The notes below the pieces were generated by a model. The model did no database searches. It was not told the origin of the DNA and saw only the letters and a list, made by a program, of their open reading frames with translations. Made by a program: the position numbers and the translations under genes. From Anaerolineales bacterium (GTDB lineage Bacteria > Chloroflexota > Anaerolineae > Anaerolineales > RBG-16-64-43): a DNA stretch of 64,000 nt. The stretch covers positions 25,063 to 89,062 of the forward strand of contig JBEKSY010000011.1 of NCBI GenBank assembly GCA_049516595.1, given 5' to 3'. Below are positions 128 to 12,422 of this stretch, piece after piece (positions within the stretch are counted from its first letter, which is position 1; the number at the start of each line of letters is the position of its first letter).

Positions 128-904
128 TCATAGGTAGCCCAGGGTTTTCAGGGTCGGACCCGCGATCTCCAGGACCTGATCCGCTTCCTCCGCCGAGAGC
201 CCCATCTGGTATTTCCCGATGCTGGCCTCGTGCACGCGCTGGGTCGAGAAGCCGCGGGGGTCGACCCCCAGCCACTCCCCTAGGGCGCTCAGTTCCCGAT
301 CTGGGTTGCGCACCAAGTCCTCATAGCGGATGCAGTAGGCCTGCGCCCGGTGCCTCTCCATCGCCTGGATGGCCCGCACCCAATCCTGGGCCACCTGTGC
401 CGCCGTGTGGACATCCTTCCACAGCGGGCGATTCCGCCAGACGGTCCGCACTTGTTTCAGGGTCGAACTCACCACATCGCGAGCGTCGCGGTAGATGACC
501 AGGATCTGCAGGCCGGGCTCACGCGCGAGGTCATCGAGCCGGAAGATGTAACGGGGGTACTTGTCTCCCACAATCCGGGCTTGGGGAAAGATGGCATGCA
601 GGACGCGCTCGACCTCCCTCACCCCGATCGGGCCCCCCGCGTTCGGCAAGAGTCCCAGGAGATATTGGGCCAAGAAGGCTGCGCTCGGGAGCTTGGCACG
701 CAGGGGGACCTCGCGACCCGTCCGGCCCACATACGCGCGATAGTACCAGTTCTTGCGCAGGGCGCGCACGTGTTCCAGGTATCCGACATTAAGAGCTCTG
801 AAGTTCTGGAATTCGATGGTGACCTGGATCTCGGGATGCAGGTTGAACAGCTGGGCCAGGAGGGTCGTTCCCGAGCGGGCATGTCCCGCAATCACCAAAG
901 CCAT
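128..904 (-). CDS. P-loop (PAPS-dependent type) sulfotransferase, NodH/Stf0-like
   Basis: ORF 128..961. MALVIAGHARSGTTLL matches the 5'-phosphosulfate-binding P-loop of sulfotransferases. The ATG at 904 aligns with the start of the paralog MALLICGHQRSGTTIL, and the two proteins are collinear (…VIYRD.RDV.SST…RYEDLV..P). Confidence 0.8.
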   Translation of the reverse strand: MALVIAGHARSGTTLLAQLFNLHPEIQVTIEFQNFRALNVGYLEHVRALRKNWYYRAYVGRTGREVPLRAKLPSAAFLAQYLLGLLPNAGGPIGVREVERVLHAIFPQARIVGDKYPRYIFRLDDLAREPGLQILVIYRDARDVVSSTLKQVRTVWRNRPLWKDVHTAAQVAQDWVRAIQAMERHRAQAYCIRYEDLVRNPDRELSALGEWLGVDPRGFSTQRVHEASIGKYQMGLSAEEADQVLEIAGPTLKTLGYL

Positions 905-970
905 GCGCACCACTCCCACGCGGGGGGCACGATCCAGACAAAGGGCCCAGCTTCGCGCCACCCCGGCTGG

Positions 971-1756
971 CTACAGCCGATACCCAAACCGCTCCATGGT
1001 CGGGCCCGCCACCTCGATCACCGCCCGAAGCTCCTCAGGGGTTAACCCCTCCCGGTGCTTTCCGATCTTGTCCGCCTGCAGGTACCGCGACGGGAAGCCC
1101 TGGGGGTCCAGCCCCAGCCAGTCCCCAATCCCCTTCAGGACCGGACCGGGATCCTGGACCAGGTCTTCGTAGCGGACGACGTGGATCCGGTCGGCGAATT
1201 GGTCCATGATCTGCATGCCCTTCACCCAGCGGCGAGCCACCTTCTCGGGGGTGTCGAGCCCTTGCACGAAGCCCCGCGTGCGCCAAGTCGTGCGAGCCAT
1301 CCTCAGGGTGGAACTGGCGACGTCCCGGCAATCGCGGTAGATGACCAGGCACTGCGCTTGCGGGCTGGCCGTCAGCTCGGGCAGGTGGGAGAGGTAGTCG
1401 GGGAACTTGTCCCCCACCACCCTGGCCCGCGGGAAGAGGCACCGTAAGGCCCCTTCGATGGCGGCGACCGAGACTCGCTCTCTCCAGAAACGAGTGTAGG
1501 CGAGAAGGTAGCAGGGAACAAGAAGGTGATTGCGCAGGAAATTGAGCGGGCCCAGGGCCACGGGCACGAGTAGATTGTTGCGCCGACGGAGCAGCCACCA
1601 GCGACCCAGAATCCATCGCACGTAGACACGGTAGGAAAGGCCGAGCTGCCAAAAGTTGGCGAATTCCACCGTCAGGCGGATATCTGGATGGCGGCCGACC
1701 ACGTCGGCCAGGATCGTGGTTCCCGAACGTTGGTGCCCACAGATCAGAAGGGCCAT
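971..1756 (-). CDS. P-loop sulfotransferase, paralog of 128..904
   Basis: N-terminal MALLICGHQRSGTTIL, then VIYRDCRDVASSTL and RYEDLVQDP. The start lies 1 nt downstream of the ABC gene stop, consistent with one operon. Confidence 0.8.
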   Translation of the reverse strand: MALLICGHQRSGTTILADVVGRHPDIRLTVEFANFWQLGLSYRVYVRWILGRWWLLRRRNNLLVPVALGPLNFLRNHLLVPCYLLAYTRFWRERVSVAAIEGALRCLFPRARVVGDKFPDYLSHLPELTASPQAQCLVIYRDCRDVASSTLRMARTTWRTRGFVQGLDTPEKVARRWVKGMQIMDQFADRIHVVRYEDLVQDPGPVLKGIGDWLGLDPQGFPSRYLQADKIGKHREGLTPEELRAVIEVAGPTMERFGYRL

Positions 1757-1757
1757 G

Positions 1758-9420: not shown

Positions 9421-9899
9421 GCAGCATGTGCAGGCGGGAACTCCGCTCCTTCTCCGGGGCCGTCTGAAAGGGGGCTGGGCCGAGTCGGTCCTCGGCTGCC
9501 GCGGAGAAGGTGCAGGCCGGGGCAATCGCCGCCGGCGCCGACCCCGGCTTGGCCTATGAGCCCGGCTCCGTCCGGCGCCCGGCGGTTACGGCTCTGCGAG
9601 GCTGGGGGTGCGCGGTCTGCGGAAGGCCGAACCCTTACACCGGGGAACCATTTTTGAGGGAAGGGGGATAGCTGCCCACTCGGCGGAACCGGCCAGGCGA
9701 CGGAAGCCGCTTCAGGAGCAGGAGCCGGGCAGAGTTGGGCCAAGCCCGCGCCCGCCTTACTCGGGCTCACCACGATGGCACTCGCTCTTGGTTCGTGCAG
9801 CAGGGCCCCCGCGCTCGTTCCCGCCGTGAGCCCGGCGGTCCCGGCCACCCTTCCCGCAAGCGCAAGGGTGTGGACGGTGCCGTCCAGATCCGCGCCTCC

Positions 9900-10595
9900 C
9901 TACGAACTCTCCGACATTGCCAGGCGCAGGGCCTCTCTCCATGGAGGCAGCCTTACGCCAAAGGCTTCCTCCGCTCGCTGGCAGTCCAGCACCGAATAGG
10001 CGGGCCTTTCGGCCGGGGTCGGGAAGTCGCTGTGCCGCGCGGGCTGGATCTCGCGCACGCGATGCTCCTGCGCCCGCGGATCGCAGCCCAGGATCTCGCG
10101 GGCCCACCCCAGCCGGCCGTCCACGAGCGGCCAGTCGATTCCCAGCCGCGGGTCATTCCAGAGCAGTGTCCGTTCGGAGGCCGGGTCATAGATCTCGGTC
10201 ACTTTGTACAGCACGTCAGCGAACTCGCTGAGGACGTAGAACCCGTGGGCGAAACCCGGTGGAACCCACACCTGGCGCCGGTTGTCATCCGATAGGGGCG
10301 CACCGGCCCAGCAACCGAAGGCCGCGGAACTTCGTCGCAGGTCGACCGCCACGTCGAATACCTCGCCCCGCACCACTCGCACCAGCTTCCCCTGCGGGTG
10401 GCGAATCTGGTAGTGCAACCCGCGCAGCACGCCCTGGCGTGATCCGGAATGGTTGTCCTGAACAAAGGTCGCCGGCACGCCGAGCGCCGCGAACCGCGCG
10501 GCGTTGTAGGTTTCCAAGAAGAAGCCGCGCTCGTCCTCGTGCACGTCGGGATCAAGCAGCAAGACCCCCGGCAACTCCGTGGGCTGGATCTTCAC
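9900..10595 (-). CDS. rmlC: dTDP-4-dehydrorhamnose 3,5-epimerase fused in frame to the C-terminal ~70 aa of dTDP-4-dehydrorhamnose reductase
   Basis: RmlC core: ERGFFLETY…RGLHYQ…VPPGFAHGF…DPRLGIDWPL. The tail GWAREIL…FPTPAERPAYSVLDCQRAEEAFGVRLPPWREAL is the conserved RmlD C-terminus. No Rossmann N-terminus of RmlD is present. Confidence 0.8.
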   Translation of the reverse strand: MKIQPTELPGVLLLDPDVHEDERGFFLETYNAARFAALGVPATFVQDNHSGSRQGVLRGLHYQIRHPQGKLVRVVRGEVFDVAVDLRRSSAAFGCWAGAPLSDDNRRQVWVPPGFAHGFYVLSEFADVLYKVTEIYDPASERTLLWNDPRLGIDWPLVDGRLGWAREILGCDPRAQEHRVREIQPARHSDFPTPAERPAYSVLDCQRAEEAFGVRLPPWREALRLAMSESS

Positions 10596-10673
10596 CGCGG
10601 CATCCCTCCCTCGGGAAATGCCTCATCGGCCACCGCCCGCTTTGCTGTCCGGACCGGCGCCTTTTGCGCCGGA

Positions 10674-12422
10674 TCATCCCTCCAAAGACGGCGTCCTCGC
10701 GGCGGGGTCGGAACGGATGAATCCGCGCGATCCAAGTAGGCCCAGAATCGTTCTGGCGTTCTCCTCCGGGGAAGTATGGACCGTGTCGAGCGTGATCTCG
10801 GGAGACTCCGGGGGCTCGTAGGGATCGTCGATCCCGGTGAATCCCGTGATCTCTCCCCGCCGCGCCTTGGCGTACATTCCTTTGGAGTCGCGCGCCTCGC
10901 AAACCTCCAGGGGCGTGTCGACAAACACCTCGATAAAGTGATCCGCACCCACCATGTTGCGCACATCGTTGCGGGTTGCCCGATACGGGCTGACCGCGGC
11001 GCACACCGCTACGCCGCCGTGCCGCACGATCTCGGCGGCCACAAATCCGATCCGCCGGATATTGGTGTCTCGATCTTCGCGGCTAAATCCCAGCCCTTTG
11101 GAAAGGTGAGTGCGCACCACGTCGCCGTCCAGGACGGTCACCTGGCGTCCGCCTTCGAGCAGCAATACGGTGAGCACTTCCGCGGTGGTCGACTTGCCTG
11201 ACCCGCTCAGCCCGGTGAACCACACGCACACTCCCTGTCGGTACTTGGGCGGGTAAGTTTCGGCAAGGATCTCCGCCACTTCGGCGCGCGTGAACCAGCC
11301 GGGAAGAGGCTTCCCCAGGCTCAGGAATTCCTCGCGCACCTGGGTGCCGGAAATGGAGGCGGTGGGTGCATCGGTGGGAACCTTGGTGATTTCTTCGTAC
11401 CGTTCCTCTTCCGGCAGATAGACCAGTTCCCGGAAAGGGACCATCCCCACGCCAAGCTCGCTCGAATACTTCAGAACAAGCTCCTGCGCGCCGTAGGGGT
11501 CGTAGAAAGGTTGGCCCTTCGAATCCAGCCCCGGGCTGGCGTGATCGCGGCCCACGATCAAGTAGTTCGCGCCATAGTTGCGGCGGATGAGCGCATGCCA
11601 GAGCGCCTCCCGCGGACCGGCCAGACGCATGGCCAGAGGCAGCAGAGCGAGCAGGATGCGGTCGTGGTCGTAATAATGCGCGGCCAGCGCGCGGTACGTG
11701 CGCACACGCGTGTAGTGATCGACATCCCCGGGCTTGGTCATCCCGACCACCGGGTGTAAGAGCAGGGTCCCATTGACCTCCCGGGCAGCGCGCTTGGTCA
11801 ATTCCTCGTGAACCCGGTGGAGTGGGTTGCGGGTTTGGAAGGCGACCACATTCGCGCAGCCCAGACGGGCCAAGCGGTCGCGGGTTTCCTTGGGCGTCAA
11901 TCGCAGGTCGCGGAAATCAAAGTGCGGAGGGAGCTGCAGGACTTCGAGCCGGCCCGAGAGGTTGAGCTTGCCCCAGCGGTGCATCTCCGCCACCAGGGGG
12001 TGTTTCGTGTCGCGCGTCCCCAGAACCCGGGAGGCCGTCTGGTCAAGATCCCAGGCGTAGATTTCCTCCAGTCGCAGGACCGCCAGCAGTTCGTTCTTGG
12101 AGTTGCGAAGCGCGACTTCCCGGTCCAAGCGGAGATCGGGCGAGGGATCTACCGGGAGGCAAACCGGGATGGGAAAGATGGCGCCGCTCTGAAGGTGCAT
12201 ATCCTCCAGCACGCGTTGAAAGTCTGCTTGCCCCATGAACGTGGCCAGAGGGGAAAAAGCGCCAGTGGCCAGCAGTTCAAGGTCGCAGACGCAGCGCTCG
12301 CTGAGCTGGATGGAGGGAAGACGGCTCGCTCGGCGCCTTGCCTCCTCCAGCGCCCCCAGGTCCAGCAAGAGGTTCACCAGGCTTCCGCCGTACGGGGAAA
12401 TCAATTCAGATCGGTCGGGCAT
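10674..12422 (-). CDS. sat: Bifunctional sulfate adenylyltransferase / adenylylsulfate kinase (PAPS synthase)
   Basis: ATP-sulfurylase motifs [12 protein letters not shown] and GRDHASPG. C-terminal APS-kinase P-loop [16 protein letters not shown] at 12422 ([13 protein letters not shown]…) is internal to ORF 10674..12536. Confidence 0.9.

Follow-up and report, generated by a model that had tools for sequence, protein, structure and literature searches.

The locus described here raises the question of whether a run of glycosyltransferase, exporter and sulfotransferase genes, with a gene for the synthesis of the sulfate donor 3'-phosphoadenosine 5'-phosphosulfate (PAPS) on the same strand, constitutes a single pathway and, if so, what that pathway makes. 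The genes are located at one end of a 64,000-nucleotide stretch of DNA from an Anaerolineales bacterium of the phylum Chloroflexota (GenBank assembly GCA_049516595.1, contig JBEKSY010000011.1, positions 25,063 to 89,062 of the forward strand); the whole of this stretch, which has a GC content of ~66%, is referred to below as the window. Our working hypothesis, to which we would assign a probability of about 0.6, is that the cluster makes a sulfated, acylated envelope glycoconjugate, in that a glycan would be put together on a lipid and receive its sulfate in the cytoplasm, after which an ATP-binding cassette (ABC) protein would flip it and it would be O-acylated outside. The likely form of the product is a lipid-linked oligo- or polysaccharide, i.e. 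a glycolipid, a lipoglycan or a wall-attached glycan. The features from which the hypothesis starts are observed ones, namely the families of the encoded proteins, the PAPS motifs and fold of the sulfotransferases, glycosyltransferases and sulfotransferases that are free of transmembrane segments, the order of the genes and the conservation of that order.

An earlier note on this DNA, made from the sequence alone, had described six consecutive minus-strand genes, in the order GT4, GT2, double GT2, MsbA-like ABC exporter and two paralogous sulfotransferases (here ST1 and ST2), separated by junctions of 4, 78, 57, 1 and 66 nt. Genes were taken from the listing of minus-strand open reading frames (ORFs) together with Pfam and NCBIfam profile searches (Table 1, coordinates given start to stop), and all six were recovered in this order and in the same places. 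Independent gene calls on public contigs carrying an identical ST1 gave the same junctions, and a gap of 52 nt between ST2 and the gene that follows it. The earlier note had the string end with ST2; its genes do extend down to position 128, but a seventh gene, hyp374, begins at position 75, and the rest of the string lies beyond the window. The note also placed an intact bifunctional PAPS synthase gene (sat/cysC) just upstream on the same strand. The gene is intact, bifunctional and on that strand, but ~2.1 kb separates it from GT4, and in this interval are a fusion ORF and a decayed second copy of sat/cysC. Neither the decayed region nor the acylation module beyond the window was part of the earlier description.

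The same gene order recurs in many genomes and the arrangement is therefore more than chance. One genome per species was pattern-scanned with an alignment of the sulfotransferases, which yielded 39 loci (given L numbers here), all of them from metagenome-assembled genomes (MAGs), and tblastn searches were made with the cluster proteins. The complete 13-gene order is present in L007 and L008, and in Ca. Aquidulcis it is split between two contigs of one MAG, with the genes from Sat/CysC to hyp374 on L034 and the remainder on L031. A core consisting of a GT2+helical unit (a GT2 domain joined to an all-helical domain, as in each half of the double GT2), an MsbA-like ABC protein, one to four sulfotransferases and a GT2 is found at 20-22 of the 39 loci. 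Synteny in relatives is seen at three levels, as the complete string, as the split string of a third relative and as the core. Within 8 kb of the sulfotransferase, the GT2+helical unit and the MsbA-like ABC protein each occur at at least 22 of the 39 loci, GT2 at at least 20, two or more sulfotransferases at at least 17, and Sat/CysC at at least 8, the last in two phyla; the shortness of many contigs makes these counts minima. The loci span Anaerolineae, Ardenticatenaceae, Promineifilaceae, Ca. Leptofilum, Gemmatimonadota, Desulfobacteraceae, Phycisphaerae and Gammaproteobacteria; five homologues (L013, L022, L024, L026 and L028) are in unrelated contexts. Sat/CysC stands immediately before GT4 in L007, L008 and L034, and in Gemmatimonadota it is convergent and ~0.9 kb after the sulfotransferase. 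In one Gemmatimonadales locus (L016:10751-11632, minus strand) the gene for another Sulfotransfer_3 protein, of more canonical type (130 bits), separates that of the family sulfotransferase, with which it is convergent, from Sat/CysC.

Of particular interest are the partners that replace or accompany the core genes in relatives. L027 and L038 have no MsbA-like pump in the cluster, and carry there Wzm (ABC2_membrane) and Wzt (ABC_tran plus the carbohydrate-binding Wzt_C domain). In L021 the ABC gene and the sulfotransferase gene flank one for a PMT_2 GT-C protein, and a Rhamno_transf glycosyltransferase is encoded as well, the latter being found in L045 too; L017 encodes a Wzy_C O-antigen-ligase-like protein, and PMT_2 matches in L016 and L036 are sub-threshold. 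The Wzm/Wzt, Rhamno_transf, PMT_2 and Wzy_C partners point to a lipid-linked glycan pathway and not to peptide maturation. In three Chloroflexota loci (L039:2727-4827, L041:11736-14408 and L042:12092-13731) an Ssu/Tau-type importer, comprising an ATPase, BPD_transp_1 and NMT1, directly follows the sulfotransferases and may provide a dedicated sulfur supply. A sufCBD Fe-S operon is found ~4-6 kb after the sulfotransferases in L014, L018, L021, L023, L027, L038 and L045, a neighbourhood conserved in many Chloroflexota but with no evident functional meaning; the downstream 'ABC' matches seen in many loci (27% identity over one-third coverage) proved to be SufC of this neighbouring operon and were discarded.

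The assignment of the two small proteins ST1 and ST2 as PAPS-dependent sulfotransferases, made in the earlier note, is borne out by their Pfam scores, by invariant cofactor-binding motifs, by a confident structural model and by the structures that this model matches. The two are paralogues, 40% identical to each other, and both pass PF00685 in addition to PF13469. The 5'-phosphosulfate-binding loop (5'-PSB), GHQRSGTT in ST1 and GHARSGTT in ST2, aligns with the PRSGTT of TPST1; across 34 sequences of the family it reads GHxRSGTT, with G7, R10, S11, G12 and T13 invariant. The 3'-phosphate-binding motif (3'-PB), YRDCRDVASS, reads YRDxRDVxSS in the same 34 sequences, with R141, D142, D145 and S149 invariant, and a GDKxP motif (G115, D116, K117 and P119) and E31 are invariant among them as well. 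The AlphaFold2 (AF2) model of ST1 has a pLDDT of 94.5 and a pTM of 0.91, and the 50 PDB matches listed for it by Foldseek consist without exception of sulfotransferases and related PAP-binding enzymes, almost all of which depend on PAP(S). TPST1/2 head the order, followed by Stf9, the CurM sulfotransferase, the olefin synthase sulfotransferase, the 3-OSTs and Stf0 (rank 26), with Teg12 also among the neighbours; the best matches have a probability of 1.00 and TM-scores of ~0.5-0.6. The sole NCBIfam match of ST1 and ST2 is to the carbohydrate sulfotransferase NoeE, with scores (34 and 18 bits, respectively) that fall far short of the cut-off of 500. We regard the predicted fold and cofactor site of these proteins, but not the acceptor, as settled. 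Both paralogue types are retained in L007 and L008, which suggests two regiospecificities.

Hydropathy scans of GT4, GT2, the double GT2, ST1 and ST2 revealed no transmembrane segments, which indicates that both assembly of the glycan and its sulfation are cytoplasmic; as PAPS is made in the cytoplasm and the sulfotransferases lack membrane segments, sulfation should occur there. Each unit of the double GT2 is made up of a GT2 core of ~230 amino acids and an all-helical domain of ~225 amino acids. The two halves are 38% identical over 403 amino acids, the helical non-catalytic parts included, and the protein is a tandem duplication, single GT2+helical proteins of ~470-500 amino acids being the common form in other lineages and phyla. 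An AF2 model of the N-terminal half (pLDDT 88) comprises a GT-A core with helices at residues 237-461; in Foldseek searches the GT-A core alone gave matches, its neighbours including such glycan-acting GT2 enzymes as WrtF, the chondroitin polymerase K4CP, TarS, TarP, RmlT and heparosan synthase. The ABC protein has an N-terminal membrane domain followed by a nucleotide-binding domain, the architecture of MsbA. Among the half-transporters of the PDB it is closest to MsbA (E 7e-68, residues 27-598), its best NCBIfam model is likewise that of MsbA (TIGR02203, 296 bits, short of the cut-off of 602), and we would call the predicted protein MsbA-like in architecture only. Its other NCBIfam scores include 237 bits on the NHLP bacteriocin exporter model and 218 bits, below cut-off, on HepA, and no C39 peptidase domain was found on it with Pfam. 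As in ABC-dependent glycan pathways, the exporter gene adjoins genes for soluble glycosyltransferases; here it is placed between these and the sulfotransferase genes.

The PAPS synthase match (PRK05537) spans residues 44-608 of the Sat/CysC ORF and exceeds the equivalog cut-off, with both catalytic domains intact. Pfam identifies PUA_2, ATP-sulfurylase and APS_kinase domains, and the translation contains HxxH-type and GRD motifs and the kinase P-loop GLSGSGKST. The ORF is open to position 12536; a 582-amino-acid gene call on public contigs agrees with a start at 12422, which is the likely one. In the interval between sat/cysC and GT4, the RmlC part of the fusion ORF is nearly complete (model positions 2-159 of 176), and its RmlD part is confined to residues 162-228, corresponding to model positions 216-283, the last ~65 residues of RmlD. 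This RmlC-'RmlD ORF, which is also present on contigs from several samples, looks like the in-frame product of a deletion that removed the Rossmann domain of RmlD, and it is uncertain whether it has a part in the pathway. In the decayed copy of sat/cysC a PUA-domain piece is joined directly to the C-terminus of the APS kinase, the interior being deleted, and the APS_kinase match covers profile positions 113-150 of 152 only. The copy is visible at the nucleotide level as direct repeats of the intact gene (8942-9130 and 10706-10894, 74% identity; 9121-9244 and 12007-12130, 76% identity). At the amino acid level it is 74% identical to the intact copy of the same genome and 54-60% identical to the L007 and L008 orthologues, from which we conclude that it is a lineage-specific duplicate that later decayed. 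It occupies the slot that intact sat/cysC holds in L007, L008 and L034, ~210-300 nt before GT4. Contigs from several samples share the decayed region, which rules out an artefact of assembly. Besides the sat/cysC remnant, the 1.1-kb gap at 8770-9899 contains spurious high-GC ORFs only, and an Rfam scan of positions 1-20000 detected no RNA element.

A promoter of its own probably serves the string that begins with GT4. A candidate extended -10 box, TGTATAAT, is located ~97 nt before the GT4 start, and the identical octamer is found 110-125 nt before the GT4 orthologues of L007 (L007:2927-2934) and L008 (L008:2909-2916), within spacers that are otherwise poorly conserved and in a genome of 66% GC. 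Alignment of the GT4 upstream regions with MAFFT did not bring the boxes into register, so the case for the promoter rests on the presence of the motif and its distance from the gene, not on alignment. Sat/CysC would then be a separate or a read-through unit relative to the GT4 string. No terminator-like hairpins were found on the minus strand from 12260 to 1, and two are present upstream of sat/cysC (13042-13025 and 12795-12775).

Beyond window position 1 the string continues on the same strand, after hyp374, on contigs L001 (L001:11682-19669) and L002, with genes for an MBOAT protein, a FAAL-like ligase, an acyl carrier protein (ACP), a second FAAL-like ligase and an acyl-CoA synthetase. A fasciclin protein and then a GH10 enzyme are encoded after the acyl-CoA synthetase and were taken as lying outside the cluster. 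The best PDB match of the MBOAT protein is DltB (E 2e-29), and the catalytic His is kept (WTRWHITLS compared with RWHMSLS); on the DltB equivalog model TIGR04091 the protein scores 156 bits and does not reach the cut-off of 375. Its C-terminus, PFIYQEF, and that of the L008 orthologue, PFVYQDF, fit the FXYXXF acyl-shuttle motif, the Tyr of which carries the acyl group from an MBOAT to its SGNH partner (PMC12148441). In systems of the PatA/AlgI type, which use acyl-CoA, FXYXXF is fused to the MBOAT, whereas in Dlt, which is fed by the carrier protein DltC, it is on the separate microprotein DltX (PMC12148441). Both ligases score best on FAAL/FACL models (327-377 bits) and are not DltA-like. With a fused shuttle motif and a carrier protein, the predicted acylation module is a hybrid of the two arrangements.

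The candidate for the SGNH partner is hyp374, which we read as an SGNH/DltD-like transferase and which has one N-terminal transmembrane segment by hydropathy scan. Comparison of hyp374 with Pfam and the PDB, either directly or with a four-sequence profile, gave no link, and a broader family sample alone gave a signal. This family numbers 3372 representatives at E ≤ 1e-3, with C86, G90, S92 (in FLGSS) and H337 invariant and a consensus GWxDxxHLNxxGA. Among 32 members sampled, Lipase_GDSL_2 was matched by 11 (best E 4.5e-8) and DUF1574 and DltD by three each, and the two best PDB matches of the family profile are both DltD, at marginal E values of 0.034 and 0.13. A different state of the module is seen in the closest genome relative, L015, from an Anaerolineales MAG of SPRUCE peat (66-83% amino acid identity), in which a deletion (L015:8977-9858) joins hyp374 residues 13-175 to the tail of the acyl-CoA synthetase, with loss of the MBOAT, the ACP and the two FAAL-like ligases. 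L015 is also without ST1 and has a 1.5-kb insertion, containing a weak sulfotransferase-like piece, between GT2 and the double GT2. Other acyl-transfer genes adjoin sulfotransferase clusters at L010, L025 (two copies), L041 and L042, where proteins of ~975-1036 amino acids combine an adenylation (A) domain, a peptidyl carrier protein (PCP) and an LpxL-type Lip_A_acyltrans domain.

On the plus strand of the window are an A-PCP-thioesterase (TE) protein (18254-20938), which resembles nonribosomal peptide synthetases (NRPSs) and has a DltA-like A domain, and then an Sfp-type phosphopantetheinyl transferase (PPTase; 21498-22073). By analogy with the A-PCP-LpxL-type relatives, it is possible that these two are functionally linked to the cluster.

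Table 1. Features of the cluster in the window and of its continuation on L001 and L002 (positions start..stop; aa, amino acids)
Feature	Position	Strand	Evidence
Sat/CysC, bifunctional PAPS synthase	12422..10674	-	NCBIfam PRK05537 819 bits, cut-off 669
RmlC-'RmlD fusion ORF, 231 aa	10595..9900	-	TIGR01221 rmlC 243 bits, residues 3-160
No intact gene	9899..8596	-	contains decayed sat/cysC copy
Decayed sat/cysC copy	9244..8942	-	direct repeats of intact gene
Candidate extended -10 box, TGTATAAT	8699..8692	-	consensus match only
GT4 (GT-B), 378 aa	8595..7459	-	Glycos_transf_1 132 bits
GT2 (GT-A), 292 aa	7454..6576	-	Glycos_transf_2 82 bits
Double GT2, 949 aa	6497..3648	-	two Glycos_transf_2 stretches, 220 bits
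MsbA-like ABC half-transporter	3590..1758	-	ABC_membrane + ABC_tran
ST1, 261 aa	1756..971	-	Sulfotransfer_3 79.8 bits, cut-off 27
ST2, 258 aa	904..128	-	Sulfotransfer_3 79.0 bits, cut-off 27
First 25 codons of putative SGNH/DltD-like 374-aa protein (hyp374)	75..1	-	translation matches gene on L001
MBOAT, 441-473 aa	L001/L002	same strand	PF03062 81 bits
First FAAL-like ligase, 562 aa	L001/L002	same strand	FAAL/FACL models
ACP, 84 aa	L001/L002	same strand	passes PF00550
Second FAAL-like ligase, 578 aa	L001/L002	same strand	FAAL/FACL models
Acyl-CoA synthetase, 507 aa	L001/L002	same strand	

We hypothesize that these proteins act in the following manner. Sat/CysC would convert sulfate and ATP to PAPS, and on the cytoplasmic side of the membrane the four soluble glycosyltransferase domains (GT4, GT2 and the two GT2+helical units) would build up a lipid-borne sugar chain. 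ST1 and ST2 would then add sulfate from PAPS in the cytoplasm, probably at two different positions, and the MsbA-like ABC half-transporter would flip or export the sulfated, lipid-linked product. Outside, the MBOAT/SGNH pair would esterify the product with an acyl group activated by the FAAL-like ligases and carried on the ACP, this group passing by way of the tyrosine in the C-terminal FXYXXF motif of the MBOAT, as in Dlt and PatAB. In this scheme the acceptor lipid, the sugars, the order of the steps, the acyl group and the final location of the product are what we infer.

Several of the findings weigh against such a scheme. In profile searches TPST1/2 are the solved proteins closest to the sulfotransferases (E ~1e-10; E 1e-8 by fold), at ~20% identity and a TM-score of ~0.58 for ST1, and the invariant E31 is aligned with the catalytic Glu99 of TPST2. 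The ABC protein falls under every NCBIfam equivalog cut-off, and bacteriocin and HlyB models score nearly as well as MsbA. The helical domains of the GT2 units have no database match that might point to an acceptor, and no initiating phosphoglycosyltransferase, polymerase, ligase or LytR-CpsA-Psr (LCP)-type attachment enzyme was found in the window's cluster that might point to a carrier lipid or a destination of the product. As regards acylation, the window's own hyp374 has no Pfam match and has NRNH in place of DxxH, which makes the SGNH call weak. The module is moreover absent from most related clusters, as well as being deleted in the closest genome relative, and is an add-on that is tied to the glycan by adjacency alone.

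Other products can be envisaged for the same genes. One is a free secreted sulfated exopolysaccharide, exported by the ABC protein and comparable to synechan in function, that is not anchored in the envelope. The four glycosyltransferase domains, two sulfotransferases and PAPS synthase would suit it, related clusters have Wzm/Wzt polysaccharide exporters, the MsbA-like heterocyst polysaccharide exporter HepA is among the sub-cut-off matches of the ABC protein, and the organisms are Chloroflexota of the filamentous type, which form sheaths and biofilms. We nevertheless consider it unlikely. Profile searches of the 13 cluster genes found no Wzx/Wzy, polysaccharide co-polymerase, outer-membrane polysaccharide export (OPX) protein or synthase-type polymerase, pumps of the Wzm/Wzt and MsbA/PglK types transport lipid-linked glycans and not free polymer, and the GT-C and O-antigen-ligase-like partners in relatives suggest transfer onto an acceptor; furthermore, the targets of MBOAT/SGNH pairs and LpxL-type acyltransferases are envelope polymers or lipids (PMC12148441). 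A shade less probable is a small natural product or biosurfactant that is both glycosylated and sulfated, built on an acyl aglycone from the FAAL/ACP proteins or from A-PCP-TE; the ABC protein would export it, and it would not be part of the envelope. The FAAL-like ligases, ACP and acyl-CoA synthetase of the string are what such a product would call for, as are the A-PCP-TE and PPTase genes of the window and the A-PCP-acyltransferase fusions beside sulfotransferase clusters in relatives; MsbA-like half-transporters are frequent in natural-product clusters, and the CurM and olefin synthase sulfotransferases and Teg12 are structural neighbours of ST1. The core, however, occurs without acyl-activating genes at most loci, the topology of an MBOAT/SGNH pair implies acylation after export and conflicts with an aglycone made first, the Wzm/Wzt, GT-C and Wzy_C partners of relatives fit envelope glycans, and the window's A-PCP-TE gene is on the other strand and 5.7 kb away. 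A glycopeptide-antibiotic-type cluster was considered separately and rejected, as the scanned cluster and flank genes included no NRPS assembly line or P450, and only the lone A-PCP-TE.

The resemblance of the sulfotransferases to TPST raises the further idea of a peptide or protein substrate, modified by TPST/RaxST-like sulfotransferases and SunS/ThuS-like GT2+helical enzymes and exported by the ABC protein, as in raxX-raxSTAB with raxPQ. The alignment of E31 with the TPST2 catalytic Glu is in keeping with this, as are the helical C-terminal domain following GT2, which recalls SunS and ThuS, and the score of the ABC protein on the NHLP bacteriocin exporter model, and the Rax system, too, is defined by the combination of sulfotransferase, ABC exporter and PAPS synthase. 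Yet no spacer between GT4 and hyp374 fits a precursor gene, which applies equally to a ribosomally synthesized and post-translationally modified peptide; the exporter has no C39 peptidase domain; SunS is a weak match by sequence (E 2e-3, core only) and ThuS ranks 44th by Foldseek with a root-mean-square deviation of 17 Å; the sole NCBIfam match of the sulfotransferases, weak as it is, is of the carbohydrate type; and relatives carry Wzm/Wzt with Wzt_C, rhamnosyltransferase, PMT_2 and Wzy_C genes. We consider a peptide product quite improbable on this evidence, and more improbable still that the genes are chance neighbours, with Sat/CysC employed in general sulfate assimilation and no single pathway uniting the glycosyltransferases, ABC protein and sulfotransferases. 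It is true that 2.1 kb of unrelated or decayed DNA separates sat/cysC from GT4, which apparently has its own promoter, that Sat/CysC is adjacent in just 8 of the 39 loci, and that five sulfotransferase homologues are in unrelated contexts. Against this, the tight order is conserved across phyla, with junctions of 1-78 nt and no terminator-like sites inside the string; Sat/CysC is adjacent, in differing orientations, in both Chloroflexota and Gemmatimonadota; the second sat/cysC decayed exactly where relatives keep theirs; and sulfonate-type importers follow the sulfotransferases in L039, L041 and L042.

The sulfated, acylated envelope glycoconjugate that we favour would be made by a cluster that shares its logic with synechan synthesis, ABC-dependent glycan pathways, Dlt/PatAB and sulfolipid-1 (SL-1) synthesis, and is a member of none of them. 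Synechan reportedly follows a Wzx/Wzy-type route. Its xss genes in Synechocystis PCC 6803 likewise form a dedicated cluster with several glycosyltransferases and two sulfotransferases for a sulfated extracellular glycan (PMC8205485), whereas Wzx/Wzy-type genes are missing from the cluster described here, which has an MsbA-like ABC protein (Wzm/Wzt in relatives), a PAPS synthase of its own and a putative MBOAT/SGNH module. The Dlt, PatAB and AlgI systems resemble it in having an MBOAT with a catalytic His, an FXYXXF motif and, if hyp374 is read correctly, a membrane-anchored SGNH partner, and Dlt also in its adenylating enzyme and carrier (PMC12148441). It differs from Dlt in that FXYXXF is fused to the MBOAT, as in the acyl-CoA-using PatA/AlgI systems, even though a carrier protein is present; in having two FAAL-like ligases and an acyl-CoA synthetase and no DltA; and in that the family of hyp374 is large, uncharacterized and marginally similar to DltD.

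In the ABC-dependent O-antigen, teichoic-acid and PglK pathways, soluble glycosyltransferases finish a lipid-linked glycan in the cytoplasm, an ABC protein exports it, and the initiator is often encoded elsewhere. Relatives of the cluster come close to these pathways in having true Wzm/Wzt with Wzt_C, whereas the window's pump is MsbA/PglK-like and its cluster has no ligase or oligosaccharyltransferase; to our knowledge, cytoplasmic O-sulfation of the chain is not a feature of any such pathway. The mycobacterial SL-1 pathway, which builds on trehalose, uses Stf0, FadD23, Pks2, PapA1/2 and MmpL8. The pathway proposed for the cluster would follow the same logic of a PAPS-dependent sugar sulfotransferase, a FAAL-activated acyl group and a dedicated exporter, in SL-1 for a sulfated acylated glycolipid, but no polyketide synthase, PapA-type acyltransferase or MmpL is among the scanned cluster genes, glycosyltransferases would here build the sugar, and the sulfotransferase family and the classes of exporter and acyltransferase differ. 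Rhizobial NodH and NoeE, with NodPQ, offer a further case of carbohydrate sulfotransferases tied to a dedicated PAPS synthase; in the cluster, by contrast, there is no NodABC-type chitooligosaccharide machinery, and the PAPS synthase is of the Sat/CysC type and not CysDN-like as NodPQ is. The Xanthomonas raxX-raxSTAB genes with raxPQ encode a sulfotransferase, an ABC exporter and PAPS synthesis, whereas the cluster lacks a precursor peptide, an exporter peptidase domain and a membrane-fusion protein and has four glycosyltransferase domains instead.

On the other side of sat/cysC from GT4 is the gene for a membrane protein, Memb650 (13236-15188, minus strand; 650 amino acids, ~10 transmembrane segments), the GC content of which, 0.58-0.60, is lower than that of its surroundings. 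It has no match in Pfam or NCBIfam and no similarity to membrane proteins of related clusters, it is not adjacent to the cluster in L007, L008 or L034, and the two terminator-like hairpins lie between it and sat/cysC. The possibility that Memb650 is a GT-C transferase of the pathway was considered; neither the matches nor the synteny support it, and we leave it open. Next to Memb650 is a gene for an 888-amino-acid protein (15355-18021, minus strand) with multiple TPR repeats and a C-terminal SLT lytic transglycosylase domain. Further into the window, an IS1-like transposase fragment (29033-29878, minus strand) and a helix-turn-helix plus M78-peptidase (ImmA/IrrE-like) gene (30279-31430) form a patch of lower GC at third codon positions, possibly the remnant of a mobile element.

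The sulfated glycoconjugates of bacteria that are known to us are few, namely Nod factors, mycobacterial sulfolipids, some rhizobial lipopolysaccharides and K-antigens, and cyanobacterial synechan, and no such glycan is known to arise by the route proposed here. A full-text literature search found no paper on the present cluster, and a paper from 2026 still refers to bacterial sulfated polysaccharides as products of cyanobacteria only (PMC13390465). The cluster would add another route, set apart by export through an ABC protein, a PAPS synthase of its own, sulfotransferases of a distinct family and a glycosyltransferase of the GT2+helical type. The acylation module, in mixing the carrier protein of Dlt with the fused tyrosine shuttle of PatA/AlgI, bears on how MBOAT-SGNH systems choose their acyl donor. 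It is tempting to go further and see in the whole cluster family a class of anionic glycolipids or glycopolymers, widespread in Chloroflexota, that would owe their charge to sulfate esters in place of phosphate, would be functional analogues of teichoic acids and would receive carrier-fed acyl or aminoacyl groups after export. Tailoring, by an MBOAT/SGNH pair in some lineages and by an A-PCP-LpxL-type enzyme in others, would then, by analogy, echo Dlt and AlmEFG, and the window's lineage, with a fused-FXYXXF MBOAT that is apparently fed by the ACP, would have a new kind of MBOAT-SGNH system. This broader interpretation is a tentative one, and on balance we doubt it. The cluster itself is retained in a large part of the uncultured Chloroflexota and extends to other phyla, and it gives a defined gene set and a marker family with which producers of sulfated glycans may be spotted in metagenomes. 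The closest relative of the present locus comes from peat, and one possible consequence, should the broader interpretation nevertheless hold, is that polymers of this kind could feed the ester-sulfate pool of soils and peat.

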